Origin: Caldimicrobium thiodismutans
GTDB lineage: Bacteria; Desulfobacterota; Thermodesulfobacteria; Thermodesulfobacteriales; Thermodesulfobacteriaceae
NCBI GenBank assembly: GCA_002877875.1
Contig: PNIE01000064.1
Coordinates: 1-47,783 of the forward strand
Reading direction: 5' to 3'
Length of the DNA stretch: 47,783 nucleotides
Below the pieces are notes generated by a model. That model did not search any database and was not told the origin of the DNA. It worked only from the letters and a program-made list of their open reading frames with translations. A program made the position numbers and the translations under genes. Shown here piece by piece: positions 2,948 to 32,363 of the stretch (within the stretch, counting starts at the first letter, position 1; each line of letters starts with the position of its first letter).

Positions 2948-3101
2948 GGTGTGTTTTCCAAAATTAATTTTAAAATGCTCATAATTTTGATTTTTTTTTC
3001 TAAAAAATTTTTATTTTTTTAAATCAAAATGCCCAGATTTTTAGTTTTGGTAAAAAGAGTTATAGAATTCTTACCAAAATATCTTAAAATTTAATCTTAA
3101 A

Positions 3102-4529: not shown

Positions 4530-4544
4530 TTTTTTCTTACCTCC

Positions 4545-5333: not shown

Positions 5334-5342
5334 CCTTTCCTC

Positions 5343-12571: not shown

Positions 12572-15500
12572 CTAAGAAAGAAGAGAAATAGCCACAGCTG
12601 AAACTTTGTACTCTGGCGTTTCCATAAGTTCGTCAAGCCCCGGGCTTACTAATAGATTGGTTAAAGCGGTTTCAAAATGAAAGTCTGTATAAAGCTGCCC
12701 TCTGGGAACTCGCTCCTCAAGATGAGCCCTGAAGATAACCTCACCTCTATCATTCCAGACTCTAACCCTTGCTCCTTCGTAAATTCCAAACTCTTTTGCA
12801 TCTTCAGGATTGATATCAATAATAGGTTCAGAGTATAGTTTCTTTAAAGAGGGACATCTTCTTGACATACTGCCTACATTATAGTGATTAAGTCTTCTTA
12901 TAGTGACTAAGAGAAAGGGATATTGGGAGGTGGGTTCCTCAAAGGGAGGAATGTGTTTAGCCATAGCTAAATGAATTTTTCCTTTGGGAAAGCCCGTGGT
13001 AAATAAAATAGGAGTTCCTGGATGATCCTCTTCTGGGCAAGGCCACTGAATTCCTCTTTCTTTTAATCGGGAGTGAAGAATTCCTTTCCAAGCTGGCCAA
13101 ACTCTGCCAATCTCTTCCGCAATCTCTGCAGGAGATTGATAGTTCCAGTTATATCCCAATTTTTGAGCAAGCTTAGTAAGAATTAGCCAGTCAGGAAGGG
13201 CCTCTCCAGGTGGTGAAACTGCCTTTTCAAAGAGCTGAACCCTTCTTTCTCCATTAGTAAAGGTCCCACATTTTTCAAAGACAGAGGCTGCAGGAAGCAC
13301 TACATGGGCATATTTTCCAGAAAGAGGCATGAAAATATCTTGAACTACAAAAAACTCAAGATTACTTAAGGCCTTCCATACCACACCAATGTCGCCATGG
13401 CTCATAGCCACATCATAGCCCATAGCATAGAGACCCTTTACTTTACCAGAAAGGGCCTCTCTTAATAAGGTAGGTAGAGTTTTACCTTCTCTATCTGGAA
13501 GAGAAGTTCCCCATACTTCTTGGAATCTCAATTTTGTAGTCGGATCAAGATAACTCTGATATCCAGGAAGCACATAGGGAAGACCTCCCATATCACAGAC
13601 ACCCTGAACATTGTTTTGTCCTCTTAAAGGCATAGCTCCACAACCTGGTTTTCCCCAGAAACCACAAAGAGTTGCAAGATTAGCTGCTGCCATAGCTGTA
13701 TAAGACCCAGCCCTATGTTCCGAAACACCAAGCCCCCAAAGGATTAGAGCGCTCTTAGCCTGAGAATAAAGATAGGCTGCCTGCTCAATTAAAAAGGGCT
13801 TTAGCCCGGTATATCTACTTGCCTTAGCAAGGTCCCACTCACTTAAAATATAGTGCCTATAAGAATCAAAATTCTCTACGTATTTCTCTACAAATTCATT
13901 GTCATAAAGTTCTTCTTTAATAATTACATAGGCCATACCGTTGAGTAAAGGAATATTAGAGCCTGGTCTTAATGGTAAAAATAGGTTAGATCTTTCAGCA
14001 AAAAAAATCCGCCTTGGGTCAGCCACTATACATTTAGCCCCTCTATCAAGGGCTTTCATAATCTTTTGGGCCACAATAGGATGGGCCTCATAAGAGTTTG
14101 TCCCTATAAGGAAAAGTAGATCTGCATTATAGATTTCATCAAAGTGAACACAGGCAGCTCCAGTTCCTACTGTGGCCGCAAGACCTGCGACCGATGGTGC
14201 ATGTCAGACACGCGCTGGATTATCCACATTGTTTGTCTTAAAAATACCCCTTGCTATCTTTTGCATGAGATAGTTTTCTTCATTGGAACATCTGGCTGAA
14301 CATAGAAATCCTAAAGATTCAGGCCCATACTCTTGACTAATTTTCATTAAATTTTCTGCTACAAATTCAAGCGCTGTATCCCAAGAAACTCTCTCAAACT
14401 CCCTCAAGCGATCTTTACGAATCATAGGATAGGCAAGCCTCTCTGGGCTCTTGTAATACTCAAAACCAAATCGACCCTTGACACAAGTAAATCCATAATT
14501 GGGAGGAAGATCTCTCCCTGTGACTTCTAAAATGGTTCCATTTTTTACCCAAACAGTGAGATTACAGCCTACCCCACAATAGCCACAGACAGATTTAACC
14601 GCGTGAGCCTCACTTCTACTATATGGCACAAGGAGATTCTTCTTGGTTAAAGATCCAGTGGGACATACGTCTACACAGGCTCCACAGTTTACACACCTTT
14701 CTGTAAATCTAAAAGTAATGTATTCTGCAGGCGTTCCTTTATTAACCACTCTAAAGAAAATAGCCTCGTAAGGACAAATTCTAACACATTTCTCACAGGC
14801 TATACATTTATTTAAATCTACTTCAATTAGAGGATGGCTTTTCTGAATGGCATATTTAATTTTCTTCCGTGCCTTAGAAACACCAACATCCTCTTTAATA
14901 ATAATTTCTCTAAAGTCACATTTATGAATGCCAAGACAGCCACATCTCAAACAGCGATTAGCCTCTTTTATAGCCTCTTCCTCTGTTAAACCGATAAGCA
15001 CCTCTTCAAAGTCATGAATGCGCTTTACAGGATCTCTCTCTTTTAATTGGGCTCGCTCTTCAGGCACAAAGAGGTCAAGAAAATTTGAATCAAATTCTTC
15101 TGCCCTTTTTCCTCGAGAAAAATCATATTTAACTGTAATGAGGGCCTTTTTTAAAGGTTTACCCTCAAGAAAGGCGGATATTGCCTGGGCAGCCTTCCTT
15201 CCAGCGGCTACCGCTTGGATAACTGTCTTAGCTCCATGAGCAAAATCTCCACCTGCAAAAACTCCTCTAACGCTTGTCTCAAGAGTTTGGGGATTAACCT
15301 TAATAATTCCCTCAGCAGTAGTTTCAAGCTCTGCCTCAAGGTCACCAAAATTTTTAAATTCATCAGAGGGCGCCTCACCCCATGCCCTAAATACAATATC
15401 AAACTCTTCCTCAAAAGCAGTCTCCGGAAGGGGTTTAATTTCTTTCTTCTCTGTTAAAGAGGTTCTTACAAAAGTTACCCGATAGCCTCTCTCAAGTTTT

Positions 15501-16660
15501 TCAAGAATCCAGGGAGCTGTAACATAGATAAATTTTACACCCTCCTTTTCAGCATATCCTATCTCTCTTTGGGGTATAGTGACTTCCATTCTCGAACGAG
15601 GATAATATATACTTACAGAGGCTCCCAATCTTCTTAGAACTCTACTTAACTCAAGAGCAGTATAACTACAACCAAGAATGGCAATTTTTTTTCCTTCATA
15701 TTCCTTTAAATTTATTAACTCTTTATTGAATTTATAAAGAAATTCAAAGCCACTCTCTGCCAACTCCTCTCCTTGAAAGCCAAAGAATCTCTCCTTTCGT
15801 GCTCCTATCGCAAGGAAGATAGCCTCAAAACCCCTATCCTTAAGATCCCTGAGGGTAAAGTCTCTTCCCCAGACCTTTCCTCCTTGAAATTCAATACCCA
15901 GGTTAAAAATATTTCCAAGCTCCTTCCTCAGAACCTCTCTTGGTAGTTTAAAAGAGGGGATTCCATATCTTAATAAACCACCAGGCTCCTCTTCTTTATC
16001 AAATACTGTGACTCTATAACCTTTAAGCCTTAAAAAATAGGCACAACTTATTCCTGCAGGGCCAGCCCCAACAACAGCCACCCTTCTCTCATTAAGAGGC
16101 GGAAGGTCAAGAGGAAGTTCACCATGCTCAAGACAATAATCAGCCACAAATCTCTTAAGATTATTAATTGCCACAGGCTGATCCACAAGGGAGCGCCTAC
16201 AAACAGGTTCACAAAATCTGGGACAAACCCTTCCTACCACTGCAGGTATAGGAAGCTTCTCTTTAATAAGAGCCAGAGAAGCCTTAAAATCCCCTTGGGC
16301 AATAAAACCTATATAACCCTGAATATTTAAACCACCAGGACAGGGAGTATGACAAGGGGCTTTACAATCTCCATAATGATTGGCTACAAGATTCTCAAGA
16401 ATCTTCTTTCTTATATTTTTTACCTGCGGTGAGTCCGTTTCTACCTCAATTTCTCTCTCTATTACGTAATTACAGCTTCTAACTATCCCCTCTCCTTTAA
16501 CTTCAACTACACAGATCCCACAGGGATTCTTAGGATAGCTTTTGTCTTTTAAATAACATAGGGTAGGTACGTAAAATCCTTCCCTCCTTGCAATCTCAAG
16601 AAGAATTTCCCCTTTTTTAGCTTGAATTTCCTTATTGTTTATAACTATCTTAATTACCAT
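12572..16660 (-). CDS. fdhF: Selenocysteine Mo/W-bis-PGD formate dehydrogenase fused to [2Fe-2S], GltD/NfnB-like FAD and ferredoxin domains (1362 aa, Sec819)
   Basis: The 818-aa and 500-aa ORFs are in frame across TGA 14206-14204, giving NVDNPARV-U-HAPSVAGL (FDH-H active-site motif); the intervening 43 codons are open; LRGQNNVQG; CGYCGVGC...CVKG. Confidence 0.93.
14174..14192 (-). promoter_or_regulatory. SECIS element of fdh
   Basis: GGUCGCA-GGUCU-UGCGGCC hairpin starting 11 nt after UGA, closely resembling the E. coli fdhF SECIS in sequence and spacing. Confidence 0.88.
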
Positions 16661-16741: not shown

Positions 16742-17638
16742 CTAAAGTTCTAACCATGATTCAGAAAAAATAGTTTGTCCACTAAGCACTTTATAGGTCT
16801 TATAAATCTCAAGCTCTTTAGGAGAGAGAGTTTTAGGATCAGGCTCATCTCCATCCATCATACGATGAACAAGAGCCACCCAGTCAGGATGTTTCCCCTT
16901 AGCAATTTCAACAAGCTCCTTATCATATACATCAACTATGGCACTATAAATATTGTATTTCATAAGCATCATAAGCATTACTCTGTTAAGATAGGGTCTT
17001 AGATGGGAAGCTACTCCATTAGAGACATTGGAGAGCCCAATGGTGCTTTTAGCCCCAGGAGCAATATCTTGAAGCATAGAAAGAAAAAGAAGAGCCTCCT
17101 GTATTTGTTCAGCCCCAAGGGTGATAGGTGTTAAAATAGGATCTACCCAAATTTTTTCGTTAGGTATCCCATATTCATTAAGTTTCATAATTAAATCCAC
17201 AGCAAGAGCTGCCCTCTCATTAGCATCCCTTGGAAGCCCCTCAAGACCCCAAAGCAGAGCAACTACATCACATCCAACCTCTGCTGCAAAGGGACCAAGC
17301 TTTTCTAGCCTTTCAGGCTGAATAGAAATGGAATTCATAAGTATCCTTGAGGGATTCTTGGAAGCTTTAATTCCTGCAATCATAGCCTCGGGATTGGTGG
17401 TATCAAGAGAAAGGGGAGTATCCACTACTTCTTCAACGACCTTCACGATCCAACTTGCAAGTTCTGGACCATCCTTTTTAGCAGGCCCTATATTTAAATC
17501 CAGATAGTCTGCCCCAAGTTCTGTTTCCTCCTTAGCCATCTGTTGAATAGGCAGAGGATTTCTCTCCCTCATAGCAGGACCAATTCTCTTACTCATAATA
17601 TTTATGCTCTCAGCAATGCATACCACCGTATGTGCCAT
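16742..17638 (-). CDS. acsE: Methyl-THF:corrinoid iron-sulfur protein methyltransferase
   Basis: Pterin-binding barrel: IAESINIMS, LDLNIG, LSLDTTN, GLSNVS; acs cluster context. Confidence 0.92.
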   Translation of the reverse strand: MAHTVVCIAESINIMSKRIGPAMRERNPLPIQQMAKEETELGADYLDLNIGPAKKDGPELASWIVKVVEEVVDTPLSLDTTNPEAMIAGIKASKNPSRILMNSISIQPERLEKLGPFAAEVGCDVVALLWGLEGLPRDANERAALAVDLIMKLNEYGIPNEKIWVDPILTPITLGAEQIQEALLFLSMLQDIAPGAKSTIGLSNVSNGVASHLRPYLNRVMLMMLMKYNIYSAIVDVYDKELVEIAKGKHPDWVALVHRMMDGDEPDPKTLSPKELEIYKTYKVLSGQTIFSESWLEL

Positions 17639-17666: not shown

Positions 17667-19037
17667 CTAGGCAGCTTTGGCTTGCTCTCTTAATTCAGCT
17701 GATAACTTTTTCAAAAAAGAAGGAAGTCCACTTGCCTCTCTTGGCCCAACAAGAATCTCCCATCCAGGAAGCTCCTCCTCAAGCTCTCCTTTTATACCTG
17801 CAAGATATCCAGGTATGGTAAGTTTTCTATGTTTTATCTTTTCCTCAATCCCACACCTCTTCACAAACTCCGCAATGGTGTCTGCTCCAAATTTACCTGC
17901 TGCCCAAGCTGTAAGAACAGAAAGCCCATCAGTGTTTTTAATCAAAAGCCAGGTAGGAACTCGGCTTCCCTCAATCTCACCATTCACAATAAAATAGGTC
18001 AAAGCAAAGTTACAAGTAATCACCACAGGAGACCATTCATCTGGCCCGTTGACAGGATAAATTCCCTCTTCCACCACAAGGGGCTTCTGAGGATCTGTAA
18101 AGATATTCATCCGCTCAACAAGGAGATTAAACAAGGCTTCTGCCCTAAGATCGGAGAGTATCATAAGACTTGCATACTTAGCTACAAAAATTCCAGCAAT
18201 AGAATTCTCAAGAAGATAATCCTCCGTATACCTATAAGGAAAAACTATCACAGGAAAACCAAAGGGCTTATAACGTTTTTTAATGGCTGCCCTTCTGATA
18301 ATGATAAGATCCTCAAAAAGCTCTCTCAAGCCCTTTGAGCCTGGATCAAGCACAAAATCTTTAAGCCCTTTCTTTAGAGCTCTATCTGAAAGTTCAGAGA
18401 GTTCATCCAGAGATTCAGCTGAGATAACAAAGGGAGTCTTAGTCTCCTCCGCAAGGGCCGTAATTTCTTCAAAATTCTGAGAAGTGGCTGCATAAATCAA
18501 TGGCTTAAAGTCTCCACAAAGGCTAATTCCCCTTTTTATAGCCTCAAGACTTCCTGAAAGCACTATAGCTAAATGAGGCAATTCTTCTCTTACTCTTTTA
18601 ACAAGAGCTTCAAATTTTGAAAGATCTCCATCTCCTTCAAGCATAACTACATCAGGTCTAAGGGTTATCCCTACTCTATCCCAACTCAATTTTTTATAAA
18701 GTTCTATCCTCCGATTAATTTCAGCCTCATCCATTGAAGTTTTAATATAAGTCCCTAAAAGGGGAGGATTTTCAAAGCGCTTTTCATGCCTGAATAAAAC
18801 TGTCTCTCCTCCAAGAGAATAGGTATAATCTCCACCTCCGATCTTTACAGTTCTTATAGGAGGAGCAGTGGCCTCAGCTATCTCTTCAACTACTTTAGGA
18901 TCCACATAAGGACAGGCTGTAATTTCTGCCTGGCCTGCTGCCACTTTCATAGCAAAAGCCATACAAGTCGGGAAACCACACTCTTTGCAATTCTTCTTAG
19001 GAAGCTTCCCAAGAATCTGAATTCCAGTAAGTCCCAT
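17667..19037 (-). CDS. acsC: Corrinoid iron-sulfur protein large subunit
   Basis: LPKKNCKECGFPTCMAFA...CP; FRHEK; GLSVLTAWAAGKF; VGPREAS. Confidence 0.96.
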   Translation of the reverse strand: MGLTGIQILGKLPKKNCKECGFPTCMAFAMKVAAGQAEITACPYVDPKVVEEIAEATAPPIRTVKIGGGDYTYSLGGETVLFRHEKRFENPPLLGTYIKTSMDEAEINRRIELYKKLSWDRVGITLRPDVVMLEGDGDLSKFEALVKRVREELPHLAIVLSGSLEAIKRGISLCGDFKPLIYAATSQNFEEITALAEETKTPFVISAESLDELSELSDRALKKGLKDFVLDPGSKGLRELFEDLIIIRRAAIKKRYKPFGFPVIVFPYRYTEDYLLENSIAGIFVAKYASLMILSDLRAEALFNLLVERMNIFTDPQKPLVVEEGIYPVNGPDEWSPVVITCNFALTYFIVNGEIEGSRVPTWLLIKNTDGLSVLTAWAAGKFGADTIAEFVKRCGIEEKIKHRKLTIPGYLAGIKGELEEELPGWEILVGPREASGLPSFLKKLSAELREQAKAA

Positions 19038-19064: not shown

Positions 19065-21287
19065 TTATACCAAGGGAGGTAACTTAAGCACAGGATGTTC
19101 CACTTTTTCAATCCAAGCCTTCACTTCCTCTTCAGTTGTGGCCACTGTTTCATCGGCAATTTTATCTATAAGATCGGGAACACCAAGCTCCTCAGCCCTT
19201 TTCTGTAGCTTCTCCCTCAATTCCTCTTTTAACATCTTTGGCATCCAAACTACCCTCAAAAGACCTCCATCTGCAGCTAAAAACTTCTTAGAAGTTATAT
19301 AATGTTTAGAAACTCCCATAAATCCAGGAGTAACCTGCCCTCCTCCTACCATTCCTGCAAGAGTAGAAAACTTCATACCTGTAGGGGTCATACCCATATA
19401 ATCTCTGTTGACAATCATGATTCCATTAACAGATGGTAAGAGAGCTGCTATTCCTTCCATACATCCACAAACAGTCATAGGATCAATGAGAATACTATAA
19501 AGACTTACCCTCTCAACAGCTCCACGAGAGGTCTGTTTAACATATTCATTAACTCCACTAAACTGCCCAAGCACAGGATCTATCAATTCACCCTTAGGGA
19601 TAGGCTGATTTGGCCCAGTAGGATTTATCTGATAACAGGCTTTCCCATCAAGCCAGTTATAAGCTCCACAAGCACCGACTCTCTCAGGAGTTATCACACA
19701 TACATGATTAGGAGCAAAGCTCTGACATAGAGTGCATGAATAAAAAACATCTACTGTTTCATCAGTGAGTCCTGCAAGTCTTGCATCTCTTGCCTCATAA
19801 ACCTTCTTAGCAAGCTCAAGAATCTCTTTAACCTTCTCCTCCTCAGTATAAATAGTGACCTGACACTTATCCACAATAGCCCCATACTCCTGTCTCAGTT
19901 TGGCATAAAGAATTCTTCCAATGTGTTCAAATTTAAATCCCTTTTCTACAGCTTGTTTGCTAAATCTAAGCCACACAAAGTTTCTCTGACCAACATGCAT
20001 GATTCCTTGAGCATAGTTAATTAGATGATGAAACTGTCTTTCAAGAATAGCCTCAAAGTCCTCTTGCATATTCACTCCAGCTACTTTTACAACCACTGCA
20101 AAAGGTAACACATATGGAGGACCCTTTATTCCAAGCTTTTCCACCTCACTTATCTCAGGCCCAATAACTTCTATCTTTCCATCTTCAACTTCCTCTAAAG
20201 AGGCAGAAAGAAGGAGCTCAACTGCTGGAGATCTACCTCCTCCACACTCAAGATAAAGATCATCCTTTCTTACTCGTTCTCCTTCAAAGGCAGGTGCATA
20301 AGATACAGGTATGTCAAGTTTAACAGTCGTAACTTTAAGGCCTCTTACTTCCACAGCCCTATCTACAATCTCCTCGTGTGGCACCCTTGAAACCACATGC
20401 TCATAGGTGCAAATTCCATAGGGCTTAATCTCTGGAATATCCCAGTCAGAGATCACAGGAAAGCCCCAGTTTATGGCACCTGCACCGTTGGCATACCATT
20501 CATCTGAAACCGGGCCAAAGGTTATAGCAAAGGCAAAGGTTCTATCCTTATTGTAAAGGAGATTCCCAAGATAATCTCCTGGTTTGATTCCTCCAAAAGA
20601 CATAGCTACTCTGCAGGCAAAACCAATAGCAAAAACCACCGAGGTATAATCAGGCCCAAAGGGTATCAAACGAGTAGGCCATCCAAGCTGAACTCCTGCC
20701 TCTTTAAGAAGATAGGGCATATAAATTCCGTTGGTCTGATCATGCATAAAGACGTAGAGATTTTTCTCAAGAAGCTCCTGAGCAATCTTCTGAGCAACCT
20801 CTTTATTTGGTGGAGATCCAAGGATAGCCGCAAAACCCGGAGCTGTGCCATCTACAAACTCAACTCCTCTTTTTCTGAAAATAACATCATCAGCTGCTCC
20901 AAGCCATATATTGTCACTTATAGGCTCTTCTGTCTTAGTGTAGAAATTTGGCTCCTCAAGATATCTAATAGCCTCAATGATCTCTTCAGCAAAAAAGGTA
21001 GCCATTCCTGCATCAAGAGCAGGCCCTAAATAGGGAAGCCAAGTTTTCTCAGAGGGTATCTCAGGTAAAAGCCTTTTTGCCTCCTGAAGAACCTCCTCAC
21101 AATCCCCAAGTCTCTTCACTGGATATCCCAGCATAGCATAAATTATAGGAAGATAATAGGCTGTATTAGGAAACCCTATTTCTGCCTCTTTGCCAAATTT
21201 CTTTACCGCTTCTTCATACTTTTCCCAGGCACGCTCAACAATTTTATGAGCACCTCTTATGGCAGCTGTAGCAATTATTTTGGACAT
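19065..21287 (-). CDS. acsB: Acetyl-CoA synthase (bacterial type with N-terminal domain)
   Basis: FPNTAYYLP, FYSCTLCQSFAPNHVC, PMTVCGC A-cluster ligands. Confidence 0.97.
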   Translation of the reverse strand: MSKIIATAAIRGAHKIVERAWEKYEEAVKKFGKEAEIGFPNTAYYLPIIYAMLGYPVKRLGDCEEVLQEAKRLLPEIPSEKTWLPYLGPALDAGMATFFAEEIIEAIRYLEEPNFYTKTEEPISDNIWLGAADDVIFRKRGVEFVDGTAPGFAAILGSPPNKEVAQKIAQELLEKNLYVFMHDQTNGIYMPYLLKEAGVQLGWPTRLIPFGPDYTSVVFAIGFACRVAMSFGGIKPGDYLGNLLYNKDRTFAFAITFGPVSDEWYANGAGAINWGFPVISDWDIPEIKPYGICTYEHVVSRVPHEEIVDRAVEVRGLKVTTVKLDIPVSYAPAFEGERVRKDDLYLECGGGRSPAVELLLSASLEEVEDGKIEVIGPEISEVEKLGIKGPPYVLPFAVVVKVAGVNMQEDFEAILERQFHHLINYAQGIMHVGQRNFVWLRFSKQAVEKGFKFEHIGRILYAKLRQEYGAIVDKCQVTIYTEEEKVKEILELAKKVYEARDARLAGLTDETVDVFYSCTLCQSFAPNHVCVITPERVGACGAYNWLDGKACYQINPTGPNQPIPKGELIDPVLGQFSGVNEYVKQTSRGAVERVSLYSILIDPMTVCGCMEGIAALLPSVNGIMIVNRDYMGMTPTGMKFSTLAGMVGGGQVTPGFMGVSKHYITSKKFLAADGGLLRVVWMPKMLKEELREKLQKRAEELGVPDLIDKIADETVATTEEEVKAWIEKVEHPVLKLPPLV

Positions 21288-21303: not shown

Positions 21304-23886
21304 TTAACTCATACTTAAGCCTCTGAAAAGCTCTTTACAAAGTTCTATGGACTTTGGATGCCTCATGATAAGAAGATCTCCCCCTGCGAGAGCTAAAGTA
21401 ACCCCTGTTAAAGCCTCCATCAAAATACCCCTTGATTCGGCCTTACCCATAAGTTCATCTGTAGGAAGTCCTGCCTCCTTCGTCTTCCAAACCTCTCTAC
21501 CAATACTGCAAATAAAAGGAACCTGAAGTTTTGTATCCTGTGCAAAAAGGGCAGCAAGCCTAATCCTTTCCATCACAGAATAGGTGTATTCAAGACCATA
21601 TCCCAAAGCTCCTATAGAAGGATCCATAAGGATTTTATCTAAGGGAAGCCCCATATTCTCAAGAAGAATATTTAATTGCTTAGCAAGGTTTACATCAATC
21701 GGACTTGAGGCAATCACAGGAGTATTATATCCCATAGCTACCGCTGCAAGAGTTCTGTGGTTAGCCTCAACTATAGGTCCAATCACAGCCCCTCTCTCCC
21801 CAACTATATCCGCTACCTCCCTTAAAACCTCAACATCCTTTTCGGCATTACCTGATCCCCAAACAATTATAGGAACATCCACAGCTTTAACCACTGCCTC
21901 AGCTACCTTCTTGGCATGTTGAGGAGGTAAATTCAAAAAATTAGGATCTGTCCCCACTAAATAGAGACAGATAGCCTCAGCCCCATATTCCTCCACACAC
22001 TTTTTAGCCCAAAGGGCTGGATCATGAAAAACATCTCTATAATACTTGGAAAGACTCTCTGGCCAATCTTCTGGTTTTATATCAAGGATCTCAAAAGCAA
22101 ATTTGACACCATTTTTCATCTCTCCCTCAAAGAAATGAAAATTCAGGGTAGAAACCCCTCCCACTTTAATAGCCCTATCTCCCTTACCAATTACTACTTC
22201 CTTTATCTCCCCAGTAGCCTTCTCCATATAAAGATCCTGAGGAAGATTTTTTGCCCTTTCAGATAATGGCCTGTATATACCCTTTAAGCCCCCAATTTTA
22301 ATAGCCTCAACCTTAACCTCAGGCTCAGGCTTTGTCTCAAGCTTAACCTCAGGTTTTACTTCAACCTTTGTTTTTTCTTCAACAATCTCCTTAGCCTCTG
22401 GCTTCTCAATAACAGGTTTAACCTCTATCTTTTCCTCTTCACGAGGTTTAATCTCTTCAGGTGCTTCTTCTTTTTTGACCTCAGGCTTTACTTCAGGTTT
22501 AACCTCAGGCTTAATCTCTGGCTTTACTTCAGGTTTAACCTCGGGCTTAACTTCTTTTGCCTCAGGTTTTACTACTACTTCTTCAACCTTTTCCTCAATC
22601 TTTGGCTTTTCCTCTATAAAAGTCTCTCTCTCAACAGGCCTTTCTTCAGGTCTTTTTATTACCTCTTTCCTAATAGGCCTTGCCTCTTTCTTTTTCAAAA
22701 ATTCCTCTTCAAGCCTTGCAATTCCCTCCTCTAAGGACTCCATTCCCGCCTTAAGGCTCTTTAAGCTTGCCTTAAGATCAGAGAGAATCTCAATAAGGGT
22801 AAAGATCTTTTCTTCGGCCATTTCACCCTCCAGAGGAACCTCTTTTTCTATTACCTTTTCAACTATTACCTCAACTGGCTTTTCAATAATTTTCTCTACA
22901 ATTACTTCAACAGGTTTCTCCACCACTTTTTCCACCACCTTCTCAACTACAAAAGGTGGCATAAAAGAGGGGGCCTCCTCTCTGGGATAAAGCCCTGCCC
23001 TTTTCACAATCTCAGGAACAGCCTCCTCCCACTCAATAGCCATTATATGGACACCACAAACTCCTGGAATCTCTTTTACCTGCTGAATTATATCTACCGC
23101 AATCTGAATACCCTCTTCCTTTTTGTCTTTGGCATCTTCAAGTCTCTTTATGATTTCATCAGGAACCTCAAGCCCTGGAACATTATACTTCATATATTTG
23201 GCCATTCCGAGAGACTTGGGAGGAGTAATTCCTGCCAGGATGTAAACCTTGTCAAGAAGCCCAAGCTCTCGGCACCTCTCCATAAATTTTCTAAACTTTT
23301 CTACATTATAAATAATTTGCGTCTGAATAAATCTTGCTCCAGCCTTCACTTTTTTGGCAAGTCTTAAAGGTCTAAAATCAAAAGGCTCAGCAAAGGGATT
23401 CTCTGCAGCCCCAATAAAGAAATAGGGCCTCCTTCCCTTTATCTCTTCTCCATTTTCAAATCTTCCCTCCTTTAGTCCTCTTACCAGCTTTATCAATTGA
23501 ATAGAGTCTAAATCAAAAACTGGCTTTGCCTGAGGATGATTTCCAAATTTAGGATGATCCCCTGTCAAACAGAGAAGATTTTTTATCCCAAGGGCACTTG
23601 CTCCAAGGAGATCAGCTTGAATACCAATCCTATTTCTATCTCTACAGGTCATCTGCATAACTGGCTCAAGCCCTTCACTCATAACAAGAACAGCTGATGC
23701 CATACTTGAAACACGAACCACTGCCGTTTGACAATCCGTAATATTTACAGCATCCACATATCCTTTTAGAATTTTGGCCTTCTTCTTAATCACCTCGGGA
23801 TCAGCATTTCTTGGTGGCCCAATTTCAGCCGTAACTACAAACTTCCCAGAAGAAAGAAGCTCTTCAAGATGGCTTTTTATCTCCAA
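21304..23886 (-). CDS. metF-acsD: Fusion protein: methylene-THF reductase MetF + ~250-aa repeat/coiled-coil linker + corrinoid FeS protein small subunit AcsD
   Basis: One uninterrupted frame; N-part VTAEIGPP, QMTCRDRNR, LTGDHP, FIQTQ (MetF); C-part IASSPIDVNLAKQLN, ALGYGLEYTYSVMERIRLAAL, MRHP (AcsD). Probable start is TTG 23886 behind GGAGG (860 aa) rather than 23976. Confidence 0.88.
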   Translation of the reverse strand: MEIKSHLEELLSSGKFVVTAEIGPPRNADPEVIKKKAKILKGYVDAVNITDCQTAVVRVSSMASAVLVMSEGLEPVMQMTCRDRNRIGIQADLLGASALGIKNLLCLTGDHPKFGNHPQAKPVFDLDSIQLIKLVRGLKEGRFENGEEIKGRRPYFFIGAAENPFAEPFDFRPLRLAKKVKAGARFIQTQIIYNVEKFRKFMERCRELGLLDKVYILAGITPPKSLGMAKYMKYNVPGLEVPDEIIKRLEDAKDKKEEGIQIAVDIIQQVKEIPGVCGVHIMAIEWEEAVPEIVKRAGLYPREEAPSFMPPFVVEKVVEKVVEKPVEVIVEKIIEKPVEVIVEKVIEKEVPLEGEMAEEKIFTLIEILSDLKASLKSLKAGMESLEEGIARLEEEFLKKKEARPIRKEVIKRPEERPVERETFIEEKPKIEEKVEEVVVKPEAKEVKPEVKPEVKPEIKPEVKPEVKPEVKKEEAPEEIKPREEEKIEVKPVIEKPEAKEIVEEKTKVEVKPEVKLETKPEPEVKVEAIKIGGLKGIYRPLSERAKNLPQDLYMEKATGEIKEVVIGKGDRAIKVGGVSTLNFHFFEGEMKNGVKFAFEILDIKPEDWPESLSKYYRDVFHDPALWAKKCVEEYGAEAICLYLVGTDPNFLNLPPQHAKKVAEAVVKAVDVPIIVWGSGNAEKDVEVLREVADIVGERGAVIGPIVEANHRTLAAVAMGYNTPVIASSPIDVNLAKQLNILLENMGLPLDKILMDPSIGALGYGLEYTYSVMERIRLAALFAQDTKLQVPFICSIGREVWKTKEAGLPTDELMGKAESRGILMEALTGVTLALAGGDLLIMRHPKSIELCKELFRGLSMS
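22475..22554 (-). repeat. Degenerate 12-nt tandem repeat encoding (K-P-E-V/I)x6
   Basis: EVKPEVKPEVKPEIKPEVKPEVKPEVKK with synonymous variation between units; ends approximate. Confidence 0.9.
22835..22950 (-). repeat. Coding repeat VVEKVVEKVVEKPVEVIVEKIIEKPVEVIVEKVIEKEVP
   Basis: V/I/E/K/P periodic repeat in the translation; ends approximate. Confidence 0.88.
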
Positions 23887-24569
23887 GGCTTTTTCCCTCC
23901 ATTCAGTCTCAAATCTTCTCTTACTCTTACCCTTAAACCATCTCCACCAGCTGGTCTCCAATCCTTGGGCTCCCAAATCTCTAATAGTTTCTCAAGTTCA
24001 CCTCGGGCTTTTAACCTCTCAACAATTTCATGCCAAATACAAGGCATATCCTTTCTTACCTCACATCTCCCACCTTGAGAGCCTCCACAGGGCCCATTAA
24101 GTAAATTTTTAGCACACCTGGCAATGGGACAAAGCCCTGCTGTCCTATCTATAATACAATCTCCACAGCCTCTGCACTTTTCAACCCACTCTCCAAGGGA
24201 AAGATTAGCTCCATAAAAACTTGTATCTACCCCAGGATAAACCCTTATCTCAGGATATAAATCCGCTATCAAATTTACCCCAACTCCACAGGCAAGACTA
24301 ACTACGGCCTCAACCTTCCCTTGATAGTCTTTTAAAGGTTCCAAGTACTCGGGATCACACTGTCTAATAAAGGTATCTTCAAGAACCTCAATAGGCTTTC
24401 CCTGCAAAGTCCTTGCAAGTCTTATGGCCTCTGCTACAATTGAGACCTCCCTATCCCCCCCAGCAGAACAAATAGCCACACATCCTCTACATCCAAGAAC
24501 AAGAATCTTCTGATAATTCTCAATATTCCTTAATATCTCAGGAATAGGCCGCCTCTCAGCAATTATCAT
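23877..24569 (-). CDS. metV: Methylene-THF reductase small Fe-S subunit MetV
   Basis: GCRGCVAIC, RQC, ACGVG, CRGCGDC...CPIARCAK.LLNGPCGG...CEV...C.W. Confidence 0.93.
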   Translation of the reverse strand: MIIAERRPIPEILRNIENYQKILVLGCRGCVAICSAGGDREVSIVAEAIRLARTLQGKPIEVLEDTFIRQCDPEYLEPLKDYQGKVEAVVSLACGVGVNLIADLYPEIRVYPGVDTSFYGANLSLGEWVEKCRGCGDCIIDRTAGLCPIARCAKNLLNGPCGGSQGGRCEVRKDMPCIWHEIVERLKARGELEKLLEIWEPKDWRPAGGDGLRVRVREDLRLNGGKKPWR

Positions 24570-24967
24570 TTCCTCTCTCTCCCCTTTAATTCAAAATTTA
24601 AAATCTCTCGGTAGAAAGCCTTAACTTTGTTTATAAAATCCTCTCCATCAAGCCTATTTACAAAAAACATACTAATTCTCTCTGGTTCAAGACCAATTTC
24701 CTCAAGAATTTTTCTTGCTCCCAGAACTCTTTTTTCTGCCCTTTCACTACCTCTTCCATTATGACAAGTTCCTGGCATACAGCCTGCAACCATAACTCCC
24801 TTAGCTCCCTCCCTTAAGGCCCTAAGCATATCAGTAATCTCAATTTTACCAGAACAGGGATATCTTTTTATCTCAAGGCTAACAGGTACCTCAAAAAAAT
24901 CCTCTCTCTCTGAAAGATTAGTATAATTACAACAGAGGATGGATAGTTTAAAGCCTTTTTCTTCCAT
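24566..24967 (-). CDS. Second MvhD/FlpD-like [2Fe-2S] protein (Cys only)
   Basis: PCSGKI, GVMVAGC..GTCH..G, LEEIGLEPER. Confidence 0.85.
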   Translation of the reverse strand: MEEKGFKLSILCCNYTNLSEREDFFEVPVSLEIKRYPCSGKIEITDMLRALREGAKGVMVAGCMPGTCHNGRGSERAEKRVLGARKILEEIGLEPERISMFFVNRLDGEDFINKVKAFYREILNFELKGRERK

Positions 24968-25521
24968 TAAAAGCTTACCTCCAGATATTCAGGTTTTTCC
25001 CTAAGCTCTATAGCCCTTGCCGGACACTCTCTCACACAAATACCACAAGCTCTGCACTTACTTTTCTCAATAAAGGCATACCTCTCCTCTTTAATACTTA
25101 TAGCTTGGAAAGGACAAGTTCTTACACAGGTCAGACAAAGAATGCACTTCGAAGGATTAACCCTTGCAAAAACACCCAATTCAAAAAGCTTCTCCTCATC
25201 AACGAGGCCTCTATCCAAAACATAGTCCCTTAAAGCTTTTATTACCTCCTTTGGTTTTACATCCATAGGACAAACAGGAACGCAGGACCCACACTGGGAA
25301 CAATACCAGAGAAGCTCATTGAGAACCTCACTTAGCATCCCGTTCAGAAAAAGATGTACAATCTTTCTTGGATCAAAAACAAAGCTTGTCTTCTTTACAG
25401 GGCAGATTCCTGAACAGGCCCCACATCTAAAACACTGATCAAAGGTTATAACTCTATCTTTAACAAATTCCTTAACCTCCCTTTCATTAATGGAAACCTT
25501 CATTAATTTTTCCTCCCTCAA
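24967..25521 (-). CDS. HdrC-like 2[4Fe-4S] domain fused to a C-terminal 2[4Fe-4S] ferredoxin
   Basis: CFRCGACSGICP...DPRK...LWYCSQCGSCVPVCP (HdrC-like) plus CILCLTCVRTCP and CRACGICVRECP. Confidence 0.85.
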   Translation of the reverse strand: MREEKLMKVSINEREVKEFVKDRVITFDQCFRCGACSGICPVKKTSFVFDPRKIVHLFLNGMLSEVLNELLWYCSQCGSCVPVCPMDVKPKEVIKALRDYVLDRGLVDEEKLFELGVFARVNPSKCILCLTCVRTCPFQAISIKEERYAFIEKSKCRACGICVRECPARAIELREKPEYLEVSF

Positions 25522-26228
25522 GTCTTCATAATCTTAGAAAGAATAGGATTTAACTCCTCAACACTTGCTCTTGTTTTTTCAACTATATAATCAAGGCTCT
25601 TTGGCCCATCCTTAAGAAGGGACTTAACCTCTATTTCATAGAGTTTATTTTTAAGCAGGGGCAATAACTTTTCCTCCACCTTCTTATTAATCGTTTCCAG
25701 AGAAAAATCCTGCATCCTTTTCAGTTCCTTAGCCACATTTCCAAAGGCAGTTCGAACCTGCATATTTTTACATACTTCAACTGCTGAGTCAAGATAAAAG
25801 GAAAGATCTTCCTTCTTTAGCCCCTCTGAACTTCCAAGGGGCCCAAGCTCCTTAATCTTTAACATATAAGTCTTTATATCTTCCACCAATTTAGCAGGCT
25901 CAGCACTTGAGATCCATTCCAACTTAAAACGTTCCTCATTAATCCCTATAAGCTTCATAAGATTTCTTACCATCTCTCCCATAATAAGGGCCTGAAAATT
26001 TCCTTCAATATATTTACACTCTCCAAGCTTACATCCACCAACCATTACAGCATCAGCCCCATTTTTAAAAGCCTCCATTACAAAAAGAGGATCCACTCTA
26101 CCACTACACATAACCCTTATAACTCTATGATAAGGTGGATAGGTCTGGCGAGCCACACCGGCCGCGTCAGCTGCGGCATAGCATCACCAATGGCACATAA
26201 AACTAAGTATCCTTGGCTCAAACTCCAT
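25518..26228 (-). CDS. mvhD: Selenocysteine MvhD with C-terminal extension (236 aa, Sec15)
   Basis: ATG 26228 behind AGGAGG gives MEFEPRILSFMCHW-U-CYAAADAAG; TGA 26186-26184 falls at the Cys/Sec of the MvhD CxWC motif; in frame with the 212-aa ORF (VMCSGRVDP, GCKLGECKY). Confidence 0.92.
26145..26170 (-). promoter_or_regulatory. Putative SECIS of mvhD
   Basis: CUG-AC-GCGGCC-[GGUGU]-GGCUCGC-CAG hairpin; loop starts 24 nt after UGA and resembles the fdh loop GGUCU. Confidence 0.7.
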
Positions 26229-26229
26229 A

Positions 26230-29200
26230 TTAACCTCCTGCAATCTCCTCTTTTCTCTCCACTTCTTCTATACGCTCCCTTTCACCAAAGCCTTTAAGTT
26301 GCTCAAGAATAGCCTCTCCTGTAAAGCCTCCAACATCTATGGCAAAAACCGGACAATGGGAAGCACAAACTCCGCACCCTTTACAGGCTGCCTTTATTAC
26401 CCTTGCCTTCCTTCTCTTGTCTACCTTTACCATCTCAATAGCTGAAAAGGGACATACCTCGGCACAAAGAGCACAGCCAATACACCTTGCCTCATCAACT
26501 TCAGCCACAATAGGTGGCACCTCAACAAAGCCCTTAGCAAGAGGTATAGCTGCCTTTCCAGCACCTGCTTTTGCCTGAGCCAAAACCTCTGTTAAAAGCT
26601 GAGGACTATGGGCAAGACCAACAATATAAACTCCATCAGTTGCGGTCTCAACAGGTCTTAACTTCACATGGGCCTCAAGGAGAAATCCCTCTTCACTCAC
26701 AGGAACTTTTAACATATTAACTACCTGGTTATTTTCTGAAGGAATTACTCCCACCGAAAGCACACACAAATCAGCAGGAATTTCAATCTCCTTATTCAAA
26801 AGCACATCAAAGACCCTCACCACAGGTTTATCCCCTTTGATAAAAACCTCTGGTCTTCTCCTCTGGGGAAATCTAACAAACTTAACACCTTTCTTTCTTG
26901 CCTCAAGATAATATTTTTCATAAAATCCATAGGCCCTCATGTCTATGTAAAGAATATAAACCTCTGTATCTGGATTTATCTCCTTAATCTTTAAGGCATT
27001 CTTTAGAGCCTGAACACAGCAGAACTTGCTGCAATGCTTAAGTTCCTCTCCACGTGACCCAGCACATTGAATCATTACCACCCTTTTTGGGAAAGACCTT
27101 TTTGAATTTTTAGAGAGCCTCTCCTCTAGCTCAAGCTGAGTAATCACCCTTTTCCCATCAAAAGGATACCTGGAGGGCCTATACTCCCTCCCTCCTGTAG
27201 CTAATACAACTACTCCATGATTGATAATCTCGGATTTATCACCAATCCTAAGAGTAGTGGTATAATTTCCAATATATCCAGAAATATTATCTATTTCTGC
27301 CTGGGTAAAGACTTTAATTTTGGGATGTGAGGTAACCTTATGGATAAGTTCATTCAAAAAGGCTTGAGGATCTTCCCCTGTAATTAAAAACTTTACTCTT
27401 CTTAGATTCCCACCAAGGTCTTTTTCTCTCTCAACCAGATAGACCTCAAACCCCTGATCAGCCAGCGAGAGAGCTGAAGTCATTCCAGCAACGCCCCCAC
27501 CTACCACCAGGGCCGAAGGAGTAACCTTTACTCTTTGAAGTTCAAGGGGTTTAAGTCTCCTTGCCTTGGCTACAGCCATTCTAACAAGATCTTTTGCCTT
27601 TTCGGTTGCCTTTTGAGGATTATCAGGATGCACCCAGGCACATTGGTCACGAATATTAGCCATCTCAATAAGAGCAAGATTTAAACCAGCCTCTCTCAAA
27701 GTATCCTGAAAGAGGGGTTCATGAGTTCTTGGTGTACAAGCAGAAACTACAATACGATTTAAACGATATTTTTTTATCTTTTCTTTTAATTGCTCAAGAG
27801 AATCTTGAGCACAGGCATAAAGAATATTTTCAGCTAAAACTACATTGGGAAGAGTCTTAGCATAGTCTCTCACTGCTTTAACATCCACCACACCAGCAAT
27901 GTTTACTCCACAGTGACAAACAAAAACTCCAATCCTTGGCTCATCACTCATAAGCTCAACATCCTCTGGCGGATACTCCTTAACCACCGTGGCCTTCCAT
28001 CGTCCTTCCTTTAGTAATTCAGAAACAAGGGCTGCCCCACCAGAGGCCTGTATAACACTCTCTGGGATATCTTTTGGTCCCTGAAAAGCACCGATTACAT
28101 AAATTCCAGGTCTTGTTGTCTCAAGTGGTGAAAGATAAGAGGTTTTAGCAAATTTGAATTCATTTAATTCTATGCCAAAAACTTGCGAAAGCTTTTCCGC
28201 ATCCTCAGGAGGAGAGAGCCCAACAGAAAGCACTATAGCATCAAAATACTCCCTTTTTACCTTGCCCTCCTCGTCAACGTAATTTAGAGCCAACTTTCCA
28301 TCAATTTTGTCAACCTTTCCTGGACGAGCCCTCACAATACGAAAACCATATTTCTCAACAGCATTCCTAAAGGATTCATCAAAGCCCTTCCCTTGAGTTC
28401 TGACATCCATAAAAAAGAGAGTGATTTCTGCTGAAGGCTCATGTTCTTTGATAACAGAAGCCTGTTTTACTGCATACATACAGCAAACACTGGAACAATA
28501 GGGTCTTTCGCAGGTTACATCCCTTGAGCCCACACACTGAATATAGGCAATTTTCTTAGGATGTTTAAAATCAGAGGGTCTAATGACTTCGCCCTCTGTC
28601 GGACCAGAAACACAGGTAATTCTTTCCATTTCAAGAGAATGCAATACATCACTAAATCTTCCGTAACCAAATTTTTCAAGAGCCTCCTTAGGAACTTTTC
28701 CAAAACCTGTTGCTAAGATTATAGCTCCAACCTCTAAGACTCTTTCTTCAGGTTTTTGAGAAAAATCTATAGCCTTTGGCCCACAGACATTAGTACAGAG
28801 CTGACAAGTCTCATGATTTAGTCTCAAACAAGTGGAAGCATCAATATAATACTTGGTAGGAACCGCCTGAGGAAAATCAATACGAGCAGCTCTTGTAAAG
28901 GTGAGATTTTCATTGTAAGTGTCTATAGCCAACCTTGGGCAATACTTCATACAGTCGCCACAGGCTGTGCACTTGTCAGGATCAATATACCTGGGATTTA
29001 CTCTTATCTTTACTCTAAAATTCCCTGGTTCTCCCTCAACAGAAAGAACCTCGGTTAGAGTCAAAATTTCTATGTTGGGAGACCTCCCGGCCTCCACCAT
29101 TTTTGGGGCAAGAATTCAGATACTACAGTCATTGGTGGGGAAAGTCTTATCAAGTTGAGCCATAACCCCACCAATTGAGGCCTTCTTTTCCACAAGATAG

Positions 29201-29292
29201 ACATAATAGCCTAACTCTGACAAATCAAGGGCTGCCTGAATACCCGCAATACCTCCACCCACAACTAATACCTGTCCTTTAGGATCCTTCAT
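26230..29292 (-). CDS. hdrA: Selenocysteine HdrA-family flavoprotein with two FAD modules (1020 aa, Sec59)
   Basis: ATG 29292 behind AAGGAGG; [10 protein letters not shown]...[19 protein letters not shown] (TGA 29118-29116); [18 protein letters not shown]; internal GVFVCHCG domain; second GGGVAG; C-terminal 2[4Fe-4S]. Confidence 0.93.
29078..29095 (-). promoter_or_regulatory. Putative SECIS of hdrA
   Basis: GGAGGCC-[GGGA]-GGUCUCC hairpin; loop starts 27 nt after UGA and begins with GG. Confidence 0.75.
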
Positions 29293-29310: not shown

Positions 29311-31353
29311 TTATTGAGCTCTTTTTTCCTCCTCGGGAGTAAGTTTCCCATGAGATCCAAAACAACCAAGACCATGAAAAACAGGCACATACTTTGGACC
29401 TTCAAGAGCCCTTCTCATAGCCATATCAAAGAGTATTCTTGGTTTGGGCTTATCAATTCCAAGGGCCTTTCTTCCCTGATTAATCCTATCTATCATAATA
29501 TTGGCAAACTCATTGGCTGTTCTTGCAACCCTCCAGGAACCACCAAAGTAATTTTCAATTTCGTAAAAGAGAAAATCAGTAACCTTCTTGCTTCCAAGGG
29601 TAGGAAAATCCGGCCCAAAAACTACTTGAACCCCAGAGGTGACAAAATACATTCCAATGGACACCGCCTTTTCACTCATCCATTGAGGGGCAGCACCCAC
29701 GGCAGGGATCTGATAGATATCTTCTCCAAGGCCTCCCGTATGCACTATCTCCGTAGCTGCAATTAAAATCCTTGAATTATCAACACAGGACCCCATATGA
29801 AGCACAGGTGGACAACCAACCGCCTCAAGAACCTCTCTCAAACCAGGCCCTGCAAGTTCTGCTGCCTCAGGGGAAAGAAGGCCTGCTATAGCCATATTGG
29901 TAGCTGAACAACCTGTTGCCAAAACAAGCACATTATTAGCTATAAGTTCTTTGGCAAGCTCAACTTGAATAGGTTCATTTACTCTATATTGATCACAACC
30001 TACAATAGCAGCAATTCCAAGAATCTTTCCATTAATAATGTTCTCATTCAAAGGCTTATAACTTGCTCTAAACCTGCCCCCAAGGATATACATAATGGCC
30101 TCATGGCTAAAACCAGCCACTATATCCACCGTGTGATTGGGAATATTTACCTTTGAAGGATCTCTCTGAGGAAATCTTGAGATGGCAGTCCTAAGAATTT
30201 CTTTAGCTAACTCAAGAGCTCTCTTTTCATCAAAGGGAATATGAATAGCTTCTTCCATCATAGCAATGGGACTTGTTGTTATAACAGCTGTATGAAATTG
30301 TTTAGCAATTTCCACCACATTTTGCATAATACACTGCACATCAACTACCACTGCTTCAAGTGCACCTGTGGCAATAGCAACCTCTTGCTGAATAAAAGAA
30401 CCTGCAATAGGAATGCCTTTTCTCATAAGAACTTCATTTCCTGTACAACAAATTCCTGAAAGATTAACTCCCTTAGCCCCTACCTTTTTAGCCTCAGAAA
30501 TAATTTCCGGATCATAACTTGCTTGAGCAAGGGCATCTGCAAGAAGAGGATCATGTCCATGCACTGCCACATTCACATAATCATGTTTTATTACTCCAAG
30601 ACCAATGTTAACCTTGGCTCTTATAGGCAGAGGATTTCCAAGGAGTAAATCCTGAAATTCTGTGGCAAGCATACTTCCTCCCCAGCCGTCAGCCAGAGAA
30701 CATCTAGCAGCCCCCATAAGAATATTTTTATAATCCTGATCGACTCCAATTGTGGTCCTATGAGTAAGTTCAACCACTTCCCTGTCAACTCCCCTGGGAA
30801 CAACTCCGTATTTTCTCCATTTTTCTAAGAGAGGCTTAGGTGCCCTGTGGGTAAGAATGATTTCTCCCTGTTGCTGTGAAAAAATTCTCAAAGCCTCTTC
30901 TGCCATATCTTTTAGTAACTTCTCCTCAGGTTGATTTGGATCAACCCCAAGGGCTTGGGCAACAACCCTTAACTTTCTCTTATCTCTTACCTCAAAAGGA
31001 ACCTCTCCGTGAACCGCTTCATAAAAAATTTTAGCCACATGTCTTCCATGATCAGAATGAGCAGAAGTGCCAGCTGCAACCATTCTGGCAAAGTTTCTAG
31101 CAACTACCGTTGCAGCTGAGGCTCCACAAACCCCTCGTAATTCCTCAACTCCCTCAACTACCTGACAAGGCCCCATATTACAAACTCTGCAACACGTTCC
31201 ACCCTTCCCAAAGGCACAAGGAAGTGTCCCTCTTCTCGCTACACGCTTAGGAGCAGTTAGAACTTCTTCTTTCAATCTGCTATATAGATCTTCCGCAGTC
31301 TTTGTCTGAATCCCGGGCTTCCCCTTACCAAATCTTGCTCTTTCATCTATCAT
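29311..31353 (-). CDS. cooS: Ni,Fe carbon monoxide dehydrogenase catalytic subunit (AcsA/CooS)
   Basis: CCRVCNMGPC, HSDHGRH, HGHDP, ICCTGNE, DVQC, MGSCVDNSR, WMSEKA. Confidence 0.97.
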   Translation of the reverse strand: MIDERARFGKGKPGIQTKTAEDLYSRLKEEVLTAPKRVARRGTLPCAFGKGGTCCRVCNMGPCQVVEGVEELRGVCGASAATVVARNFARMVAAGTSAHSDHGRHVAKIFYEAVHGEVPFEVRDKRKLRVVAQALGVDPNQPEEKLLKDMAEEALRIFSQQQGEIILTHRAPKPLLEKWRKYGVVPRGVDREVVELTHRTTIGVDQDYKNILMGAARCSLADGWGGSMLATEFQDLLLGNPLPIRAKVNIGLGVIKHDYVNVAVHGHDPLLADALAQASYDPEIISEAKKVGAKGVNLSGICCTGNEVLMRKGIPIAGSFIQQEVAIATGALEAVVVDVQCIMQNVVEIAKQFHTAVITTSPIAMMEEAIHIPFDEKRALELAKEILRTAISRFPQRDPSKVNIPNHTVDIVAGFSHEAIMYILGGRFRASYKPLNENIINGKILGIAAIVGCDQYRVNEPIQVELAKELIANNVLVLATGCSATNMAIAGLLSPEAAELAGPGLREVLEAVGCPPVLHMGSCVDNSRILIAATEIVHTGGLGEDIYQIPAVGAAPQWMSEKAVSIGMYFVTSGVQVVFGPDFPTLGSKKVTDFLFYEIENYFGGSWRVARTANEFANIMIDRINQGRKALGIDKPKPRILFDMAMRRALEGPKYVPVFHGLGCFGSHGKLTPEEEKRAQ

Positions 31354-31432
31354 CTTAACACCCCCTTTAAATTGCTAGTAACTTAAAATTAATCTAAGAA
31401 TGAAATTTTTTTATCAGTTGAGAAAATCTTCA

Positions 31433-32332
31433 CTATCCTACTTCACTAGGAAGCCCGGCCCACATTTTAGCGGATTCTAAGGTATTTTTCATAAGCATAG
31501 TAATAGTCATTGGGCCAACCCCCCCAGGAACAGGGGTTATGTAACTTGCCTTTTCTTTAACCGCTTCAAAATCGACATCTCCACAAAGCTTAGCCTTTCC
31601 CTCAGGGGTAGTACCAATACGATTAACTCCTACATCTATCACCACTGCTCCTTCCTTTACCATATCCGCTGTAATAAACTTAGGAACCCCTGCAGCTACA
31701 ATAAGAATATCGGCTCTCTTAGTGTGTTCAGCCATATTCTTGGTTCCTGTATGGCAAACGGTAACAGTAGCGTTACCAACGGGTTTTCTCTTTTGCATAA
31801 GCAAAATAGCTATAGGTTTCCCCACAATATTACTTCTTCCAACCACCACCACATCGGCCCCACTTACCTCAACCCCTGTCTCTACAAGAAGCATTAAAAT
31901 TCCATAAGGAGTGCAGGGGATAAAGCACGGCTCACCAATCACTAGCTTTCCCACATTAACTGGATGAAATCCATCTACATCCTTTCTCGGATCTATGGCG
32001 TTTATAACCTTTCTCTCATCTATATGCTTGGGAAGGGGAAGTTGTACGAGAATTCCATGAATCTTTGGGTCTCTATTGTACTTCTCAATAAGCTCAAGAA
32101 GTTTCTCCTCTGAGATATTTTCAGGTAAGTTTTCCTGCACGGAATAAAAACCAAGTTCATGAGCTGTCTTTTGTTTGGCTGTAACATAGGATACTGAGGC
32201 TGGATTCTCTCCTACAAGAATGGTCACAAGTCCAGGAATTATGCCCTTTTCTTTCAACTCCTCTACCTCTTTCTTTATGGACTCTCTTATCTTAGAAGCA
32301 ACTAGTTTTCCATCAATGATTTTGGCTGCCAT
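31433..32332 (-). CDS. folD: Methylene-THF dehydrogenase/methenyl-THF cyclohydrolase
   Basis: [38 protein letters not shown]. Confidence 0.97.
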
Positions 32333-32363
32333 AGATCTTCCTCCCTCTTAAAAATCAAATTTC

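Follow-up and report, generated by a model that had tools for sequence, protein, structure and literature searches.

The window analysed here comprises positions 1 to 47,783 of contig PNIE01000064.1 of Caldimicrobium thiodismutans, and the gene under study is a metF-tether-acsD fusion on its minus strand (21304-23886, TTG start, stop codon at 21304-21306). As the original prediction had read it, a single open frame, here 860 amino acids (~96 kDa), joins a methylenetetrahydrofolate reductase (MTHFR, MetF), a long linker, and AcsD, the small subunit of the corrinoid iron-sulfur protein (CoFeSP). The MetF barrel (residues 1-303, 22978-23886) was recognised by Pfam MTHFR (PF02219) on residues 7-298 (E 8.5e-45) and by Foldseek, with a template modelling (TM) score by target of 0.79-0.82 against T. 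thermophilus MTHFR. Its motifs E..PP, CRD.NR, TGD, and QTQ were retained in 66-67 of 67 fused frames. The AcsD barrel (residues 552-860, 21307-22233) matched NCBIfam AcsD on residues 554-857 (E 8.4e-112, above the cut-off), and PDB 2H9A_B aligned with residues 552-854 at 43% identity and a TM score of 0.92 by target. With the model of the whole fusion as query, the top Foldseek matches were CoFeSP small subunits (TM 0.88-0.92 by target), followed by MTHFRs. The AlphaFold2 model, with a 23-row alignment as input, showed two separate barrels and linkers with predicted local distance difference test (pLDDT) values <50; its predicted TM score was 0.46.

The TTG start (23886) overlapped the metV stop by 10 bases, and a Shine-Dalgarno GGAGGG was located 8 bases upstream of it, within the 3' end of metV (23895-23900, minus strand). 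The start codon was TTG or GTG at the same position in 16 of the 17 members of the window's clade and ATG in the remaining one. The TTG at 23976, which gives the longest frame, was rejected as the start because it lies deep inside metV and the conserved start with its Shine-Dalgarno is 23886. The nearest named records were Caldimicrobium and Thermodesulfobacteriaceae metagenome-assembled genomes (83-92% identity). Contigs from four public DNA runs, belonging to three hot-spring studies, spanned the gene and showed no small indels in it; the window itself may derive from one of these runs. Over 22800-23000, where a break in the frame had been considered, one contig each in X1, X2, X3, and X5 bridged the region, and the only joint in those contigs was an in-frame 36-base skip within the KPEV repeat. 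An assembly error or a lost stop was rejected as the source of the fusion, since the contigs of the four runs were free of small indels and the frame was intact across relatives.

The tether measured 248 residues, in agreement with the ~250 first estimated, and its length exceeded 100 residues in all 67 fused frames. On the minus strand it was composed of a first disordered half with VEK-type repeats (22822-22971), a conserved amphipathic helix (residues 358-397, 22696-22815), a second disordered half of E, K, V, and P (22297-22689), and a short conserved pre-barrel segment of YRPLSERA type (22228-22296, pLDDT 63-72). The two disordered halves had an E/K/P/V content of 76-80%, and the second held a 12-base KPEV repeat array (22478-22551). 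AlphaFold2 placed disorder at residues 313-361 and 399-527 and a lone helix at 358-397. The original description of a flexible E/K/P/V-rich tether was thus right in flexibility and composition, but it overlooked the conserved helix and an internal start. No known family was found for the tether, with nothing under E 0.03 in Pfam and no usable ESM Atlas match. The linkers of some lineages add coiled-coil-like and tetratricopeptide repeat (TPR)-like pieces. The VEK-type repeats (22822-22950, minus strand) were found throughout the clade having the internal start; they resemble alveolin/articulin repeats, but Pfam gave no match.

Ahead of the helix, the window sequence reads CTG GAG GGT GAA ATG. 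This stretch contains a Shine-Dalgarno-like GGAGG (22827-22831), conserved at the DNA level, and an in-frame ATG (Met356, 22819-22821, both minus strand), which is the predicted start of a 505-residue, 56-kDa helix-tether-AcsD product. The counts for the internal start are from 16 fused, non-duplicate sequences belonging to the window's clade; L115 was omitted for its shifted spacing, and three short-linker members are without the site. The Glu codon at −3 was GAG in 16/16 (gene-wide mean 0.53), a value of 1.0 that none of the 36 conserved Glu columns reached. The codon at −4 ended in G in all 16 despite coding for L, V, W, or M, compared with a background of 0.19-0.22 (L, V). GGAGG preceded this ATG in 15 of 16 sequences, and only 1 of 271 other in-frame ATGs was so preceded. 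In Desulfobulbia (this label, like Dissulfuribacteria-like, was assigned from named loci and nearby proteins), the matching Gly codon was GGA in 9/9, against 0.11 gene-wide and 0.22 in the next conserved Gly column. Synonymous sites therefore conserved GGAGG or GGAG at a fixed distance to the ATG in two lineages, the window's family and Desulfobulbia. The pairing energies of the full-length and internal starts in the window were equal (−9.8 and −9.8), and the internal start codon was ATG, compared with mostly TTG or GTG at the full-length start. Consensus matches for an internal promoter stayed at chance level (6 vs 5.1 expected). Taken from codon conservation, ribosomes probably use the internal start. 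The gene had been read as giving a single product, whereas the conserved internal Shine-Dalgarno and ATG make a second product likely.

Several results weigh against use of this start. The predicted fold over the internal site in the window was −8.1 kcal/mol, compared with −4.8 at the upstream start. No conserved internal start was found in 6/6 g5, 11/11 f3, 1/1 f2, and 3/3 short-linker sequences, and a candidate start just ahead of the helix was seen in only ~5/13 Dissulfuribacteria-like sequences. Another conserved start elsewhere in the tether was not seen in g5, f3, f2, or Dissulfuribacteria-like sequences. Per-sequence synonymous shuffles were mostly non-significant (p 0.04-0.66, window's family), and the signal as a whole lies in agreement among sequences that are related and not independent. 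The closed genomes G017 and G027 lack the internal start and have the fusion as their only AcsD match; barring cleavage of the chain, AcsD must there function in its tethered form.

These lineages bear on a simpler explanation, in which only the full-length chain is made and acts as a tether that keeps MetVF/Hdr/MvhD near AcsCD/AcsE/AcsB and raises local methyl-tetrahydrofolate (methyl-THF), the internal site being a relic or a ribosome pause. Such a model must hold in g5, f3, and f2, which have a single acsD and no conserved internal start, and the tether length kept in every fused frame agrees with it. It leaves unexplained the synonymous-site conservation near the ATG in two lineages, as well as a later re-split of the gene at that exact ATG. 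We consider it unlikely as the account of this gene.

The re-split was observed at five loci (L038, L111-L114), in which metF stops right after the barrel. In 5/5, acsD restarts 15-60 bases after metF, at a Shine-Dalgarno and an ATG in the Met356 position, with the helix first. A stop in G024 separates two genes of 307 and 407 codons. The four split loci with both complete domains formed one clade (100/99) nested among fused members, and a tree constraining all fused rows together was rejected (approximately unbiased test, p-AU 0.0001). The phylogeny thus shows one later re-split of the fused gene. On the simplest path, a working internal start would have pre-existed and the upstream stop would have removed the long form only. 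As the helix was kept on AcsD in the re-split, it belongs to AcsD, and the existence of this lineage makes the covalent MetF-AcsD link dispensable. The hdrA/mvhD block between cooS and metV was lost in 3/4 split-lineage loci (L112-L114), and L111 retains hdrA.

The helix is a predicted oligomerisation zipper. In the window, 11 of its 13 heptad a/d positions were hydrophobic, with a Leu/Ile pattern over 5 heptads. With duplicates counted, 63 of 67 fused frames reached ≥20 bits against a helix profile, as did 5/5 split AcsDs, compared with a best score of 4.3 bits among 335 shuffled linkers. Against a conserved zipper, the profile was derived from the same sequences on which it was scored, and between the clade halves its scores were low (−4 to 6 bits), with the best cross-half match still falling on the module in 21/23 and 31/35. 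The helix pLDDT was only 56-67 with the 23-row alignment, and the full helix was absent from three fused sequences. By analogy with the archaeal CdhD N-terminal helix, we lean towards self-association of the tether helix. The fused loci L041, L117, and L118 have a short tether (107-116 amino acids), no full helix, and a long branch; a shortened CooS-like frame (474-493 amino acids) with a terminal ferredoxin-like piece replaces cooS-hdrA there, and the function of this cluster may be changing.

A second use of the helix would keep both products, with the helix docking CoFeSP on CO dehydrogenase/acetyl-CoA synthase (CODH/ACS) through CooS, AcsB, AcsC, or the RACo activator. Other Desulfobacterota supplied 42 AcsD loci with C-terminal tails of 117-239 residues, many with a terminal short amphipathic-looking segment, and 7 of them were fused to CooS. 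These tails and CooS fusions suggest that linking AcsD with CODH is favoured in general. However, a Leu/Ile a/d pattern over five heptads is typical of self-associating coiled coils, the archaeal CdhD precedent is homotypic, and the helix profile gave no significant match to the AcsD C-terminal tails (best E 0.011). Homology of the tether helix to those tails was rejected on this result, and we regard the docking explanation as distinctly improbable. The 35 unfused tailed loci (L051-L110) carry low-complexity tails of 117-239 residues that end in one of ~3 conserved short motifs. The 7 AcsD-tether-CooS loci (L048, L056, L142-L146) form a second type of AcsD fusion (1122-1150 amino acids), for which the AcsD tree requires 4 changes. 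In 4/7 of them, a Shine-Dalgarno-like stretch and its ATG were present ahead of a helix-like segment, 91-111 residues before CooS, and G326 has both AcsD-tether-CooS and a 445-residue tailed AcsD. From these sequences, AcsD appears to have gained tethers on several occasions, at one end or the other.

The fusion was widespread among relatives. A survey of the order (39 genomes) gave the whole fusion in 30, a copy cut by a contig end in 6, a frameshift within the AcsD part in 1, a split form in 1, and no match in 1; the concern that the domains might be split in all close relatives was thereby removed. In a phylum sample of 401 genomes, AcsD was present in 266, and the best 150 of 275 AcsD match rows were examined. 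The best 33 rows (E up to 5e-121) contained 4 split and 29 fused forms, one of the latter truncated at a contig end, and the remaining 117 of the best 150 had frames of 313-557 residues, save five AcsD-CooS fusions. In a 136-row AcsD tree, fused and split AcsDs fell on one side of a branch and 71 others on the opposite side (Shimodaira-Hasegawa-like approximate likelihood ratio test, SH-aLRT, 100). The fused group on this tree needs 1 change, with the contig-end loci L025 and L030 omitted or relabelled. The window's fusion was in one clade with the named Desulfobulbaceae loci L044-L046. The tree thus shows that the fusion originated once, in a Desulfobacterota clade that extends to Desulfobulbia and takes in the cable bacteria. 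It is the usual MetF/AcsD form in this autotrophic sulfur-cycling clade. Both Pfam domains were found on 119 of 120 among the matches listed (of 651, E up to 1e-100). Most of the named proteins among the listed matches were called delta subunit only, and two JGI (Joint Genome Institute) names give both halves. As databases mostly name the AcsD half only, the reductase can be overlooked or wrongly assigned when pathways are reconstructed.

The unfused relative L074/L139 has the order metV-metF-acsD-acsB-acsC-acsE, and the gene order of L074 is likely the pre-fusion state. The same order would also suit a tolerated accident, in which the stop between adjacent metF and acsD was lost and the fusion brings co-expression, or is cut after translation, with no kinetic effect. 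One lineage lives with the split form and the linker sequence is highly variable, as expected from such an accident. Nevertheless, at least 13 family codes retain the fusion, even where metF has left the metV/hdr neighbourhood, and the linker keeps the conserved helix, with TPR-like domains in some lineages. We therefore hold the accident to be highly improbable.

The fusion is part of a full Wood-Ljungdahl cluster in the order fhs, folD, cooS, hdrA, mvhD, hdrC-like, mvhD, metV, fusion, acsB, acsC, acsE, and fdh, with the features below on the minus strand. Upstream were fhs, folD, and cooS (29311-34127), of which cooS was identified by Pfam and NCBIfam and fhs and folD were read from translations. 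They were followed by hdrA, mvhD, the hdrC-like ferredoxin, and the second mvhD (24566-29292), and by metV (23877-24569), which has the NGPCGG motif and overlaps the fusion start. Directly downstream of the fusion was acsB (19065-21287), then acsC (17667-19037) and acsE (16742-17638). The fusion was the only acsD in the window's genome (84% complete). No hdrB (PF02754, CCG domain) was found on the window's contig, and its matches were on contigs C82 and C86 only.

The presence of hdrA, mvhD, hdrC-like, and metV directly upstream favours a role that the original prediction had also proposed, in which HdrA/MvhD/MetV would supply, by way of the tether, low-potential electrons for the re-reduction of Co(II) in AcsCD. 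This proposal fared poorly: metV, mvhD, and hdrA are all missing from the neighbourhood of the Desulfobulbia fusions (metV was elsewhere in 5/5 such genomes). Named Desulfobulbaceae, such as Ca. Electronema aureum, show the order cooS-fusion-acsB with no adjacent metV. RACo-family corrinoid activator genes were detected in 5/5 genomes tested, with two in the window's own, and to our knowledge AcsD itself has no redox cofactor. Electron delivery is the weakest of the rival explanations, and we give it hardly any chance.

Other features of the window and its genome were noted. G000:C72:14925-16421 holds a further, distant metF that adjoins a MetV-like piece, and similar paralogues of ~500-550 amino acids were found in most relatives. 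One in-frame TGA each was observed in hdrA (26230-29292), the first mvhD (25518-26228), and the formate dehydrogenase gene (12572-16660, all minus strand), in every case at a position expected to hold Cys or selenocysteine. From this placement the three are likely selenoproteins, in which case open reading frame callers truncate or split them. The HdrC-like protein (24967-25521, minus strand), between the two mvhD genes and without hdrB, has an extra C-terminal ferredoxin domain. At 317-6497 (minus strand), dsrAB adjoin etfAB and an acyl-CoA dehydrogenase gene.

Methyl-THF is the product of MetF acting with MetV; AcsE then transfers its methyl group onto the AcsCD cobalt, from which AcsB receives it. 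The MetF product goes to AcsE and never directly to AcsD; the tether can therefore co-locate but not channel. We propose that long MetF-tether-AcsD (96 kDa) and short helix-tether-AcsD (56 kDa) chains would be made from the two starts. The predicted zipper helix would bundle them, giving few MetF units among more corrinoid proteins, and the tether would co-locate MetF with AcsCD. With the 130-residue flexible arm below the helix, each AcsCD would still be able to travel from AcsE to AcsB and back. The second start would relieve the 1:1 MetF:AcsD ratio, which lineages without it would accept. In C. autoethanogenum, AcsD was 2.2-2.5x as abundant as MetF, according to table values of PMC9040625. 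This ratio, set against the 1:1 limit, and the oligomer of archaeal CdhD favour two products clustered through the helix. That the gene gives 96-kDa and 56-kDa chains clustered in this way has, in our judgement, slightly less than an even chance. The co-location of the methyl branch by a tether, as first suggested, stands as plausible, with the tether modelled as flexible, but the covalent link on which it relied is dispensable in the re-split lineage.

The fusion is real, inherited, previously labelled, and unstudied. The original prediction took it to be of an uncharacterised type; a 'mthfr/acsD' fusion is, however, already in the abbreviation list for Desulfurivibrio alkaliphilus AHT2 (Melton et al. 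2016, PMC5016858). The text of that paper calls DaAHT2_0827 methylene-THF reductase, and its carbon-fixation section is silent on the fusion. The AHT2 fusion resembles that of the window in having the same two domains in one gene within a Wood-Ljungdahl cluster, and the Desulfobulbia fusions (L044-L046) share the window's clade. In the accessible part of PMC5016858, the label is given without any account of the linker's anatomy, an internal start, or a function. The fusion was not mentioned in the accessible parts of PMC4911364, PMC8780430, and PMC12827605, on members of this phylum. A literature search that left supplements, figures, and most subscription papers outside its reach found no paper on the fusion's function, internal start, or fission.

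The reductase side resembles the MetFV-HdrABC-MvhD complex of Moorella thermoacetica (6S type, PMC8515935), as metV overlaps metF and hdrA, hdrC-like, and mvhD are upstream. An upstream metV with the NGPCGG motif is a MetFV-type feature in the same source. By sequence, the window has both a complete MetF barrel with its motifs and metV with NGPCGG directly upstream. It differs from the 6S type by two mvhD genes, a MetF with a 557-residue C-terminal extension, and a cluster without hdrB, and for the last reason the locus is not filed as 6S type. The AcsD side resembles the structures 2H9A_B, 2YCL, 4DJD_D, and 9FZY_E over the whole barrel (40-43% identity, TM 0.88-0.92), and the full AcsD barrel, the adjacent acsC, acsB, and acsE, and its position as the only acsD in the genome are consistent with a CoFeSP small subunit. 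The AcsDs of those structures are free chains of 309-323 residues with no N-terminal tether, helix, or MetF.

Long and short proteoform pairs from internal starts are described for CcmM58/CcmM35, SpaO L/S, and CheA L/S (PMC13515050). They share with the window a single gene that has an in-frame start inside it and a short form in which the assembly domain is kept. These are unrelated proteins of which both forms were detected, whereas the short form in the window is predicted only.

The closest parallel to the helix is archaeal CdhD, in which helix 45-68 oligomerises CoFeSP and scaffolds ACDS, the complex of acetyl-CoA decarbonylase/synthase (bioRxiv 10.64898/2026.07.07.736967). In Methanosarcina, a Leu-zipper helix in the disordered CdhD N-terminus gives hexa- to octameric CoFeSP, and the preprint's authors know of no oligomeric bacterial CoFeSP. 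Both systems have a Leu-rich amphipathic helix and a disordered region N-terminal to the small-subunit barrel, predicted in the case of the window. The archaeal helix was shown to oligomerise, whereas the window helix is longer (~40 residues) and its self-association is a prediction. We tentatively suggest, while thinking it rather unlikely, that the fusion is a bacterial counterpart of the ACDS scaffold, a two-start gene whose short and fewer long chains are zipped into a hub. If so, the reductase that produces the methyl group would be surrounded in the hub by many corrinoid proteins on flexible arms, the assembly would be the first oligomeric bacterial CoFeSP, and a pair of ribosome-binding sites would determine the MetF:AcsD ratio. 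Should the helix and second start function as suggested, the fused two-start, fused one-start, and re-split forms provide a natural three-state comparison that would test the value of tethering in the Wood-Ljungdahl pathway, and bacteria would have reached a scaffolded methyl-transfer assembly that was thought to be archaeal.

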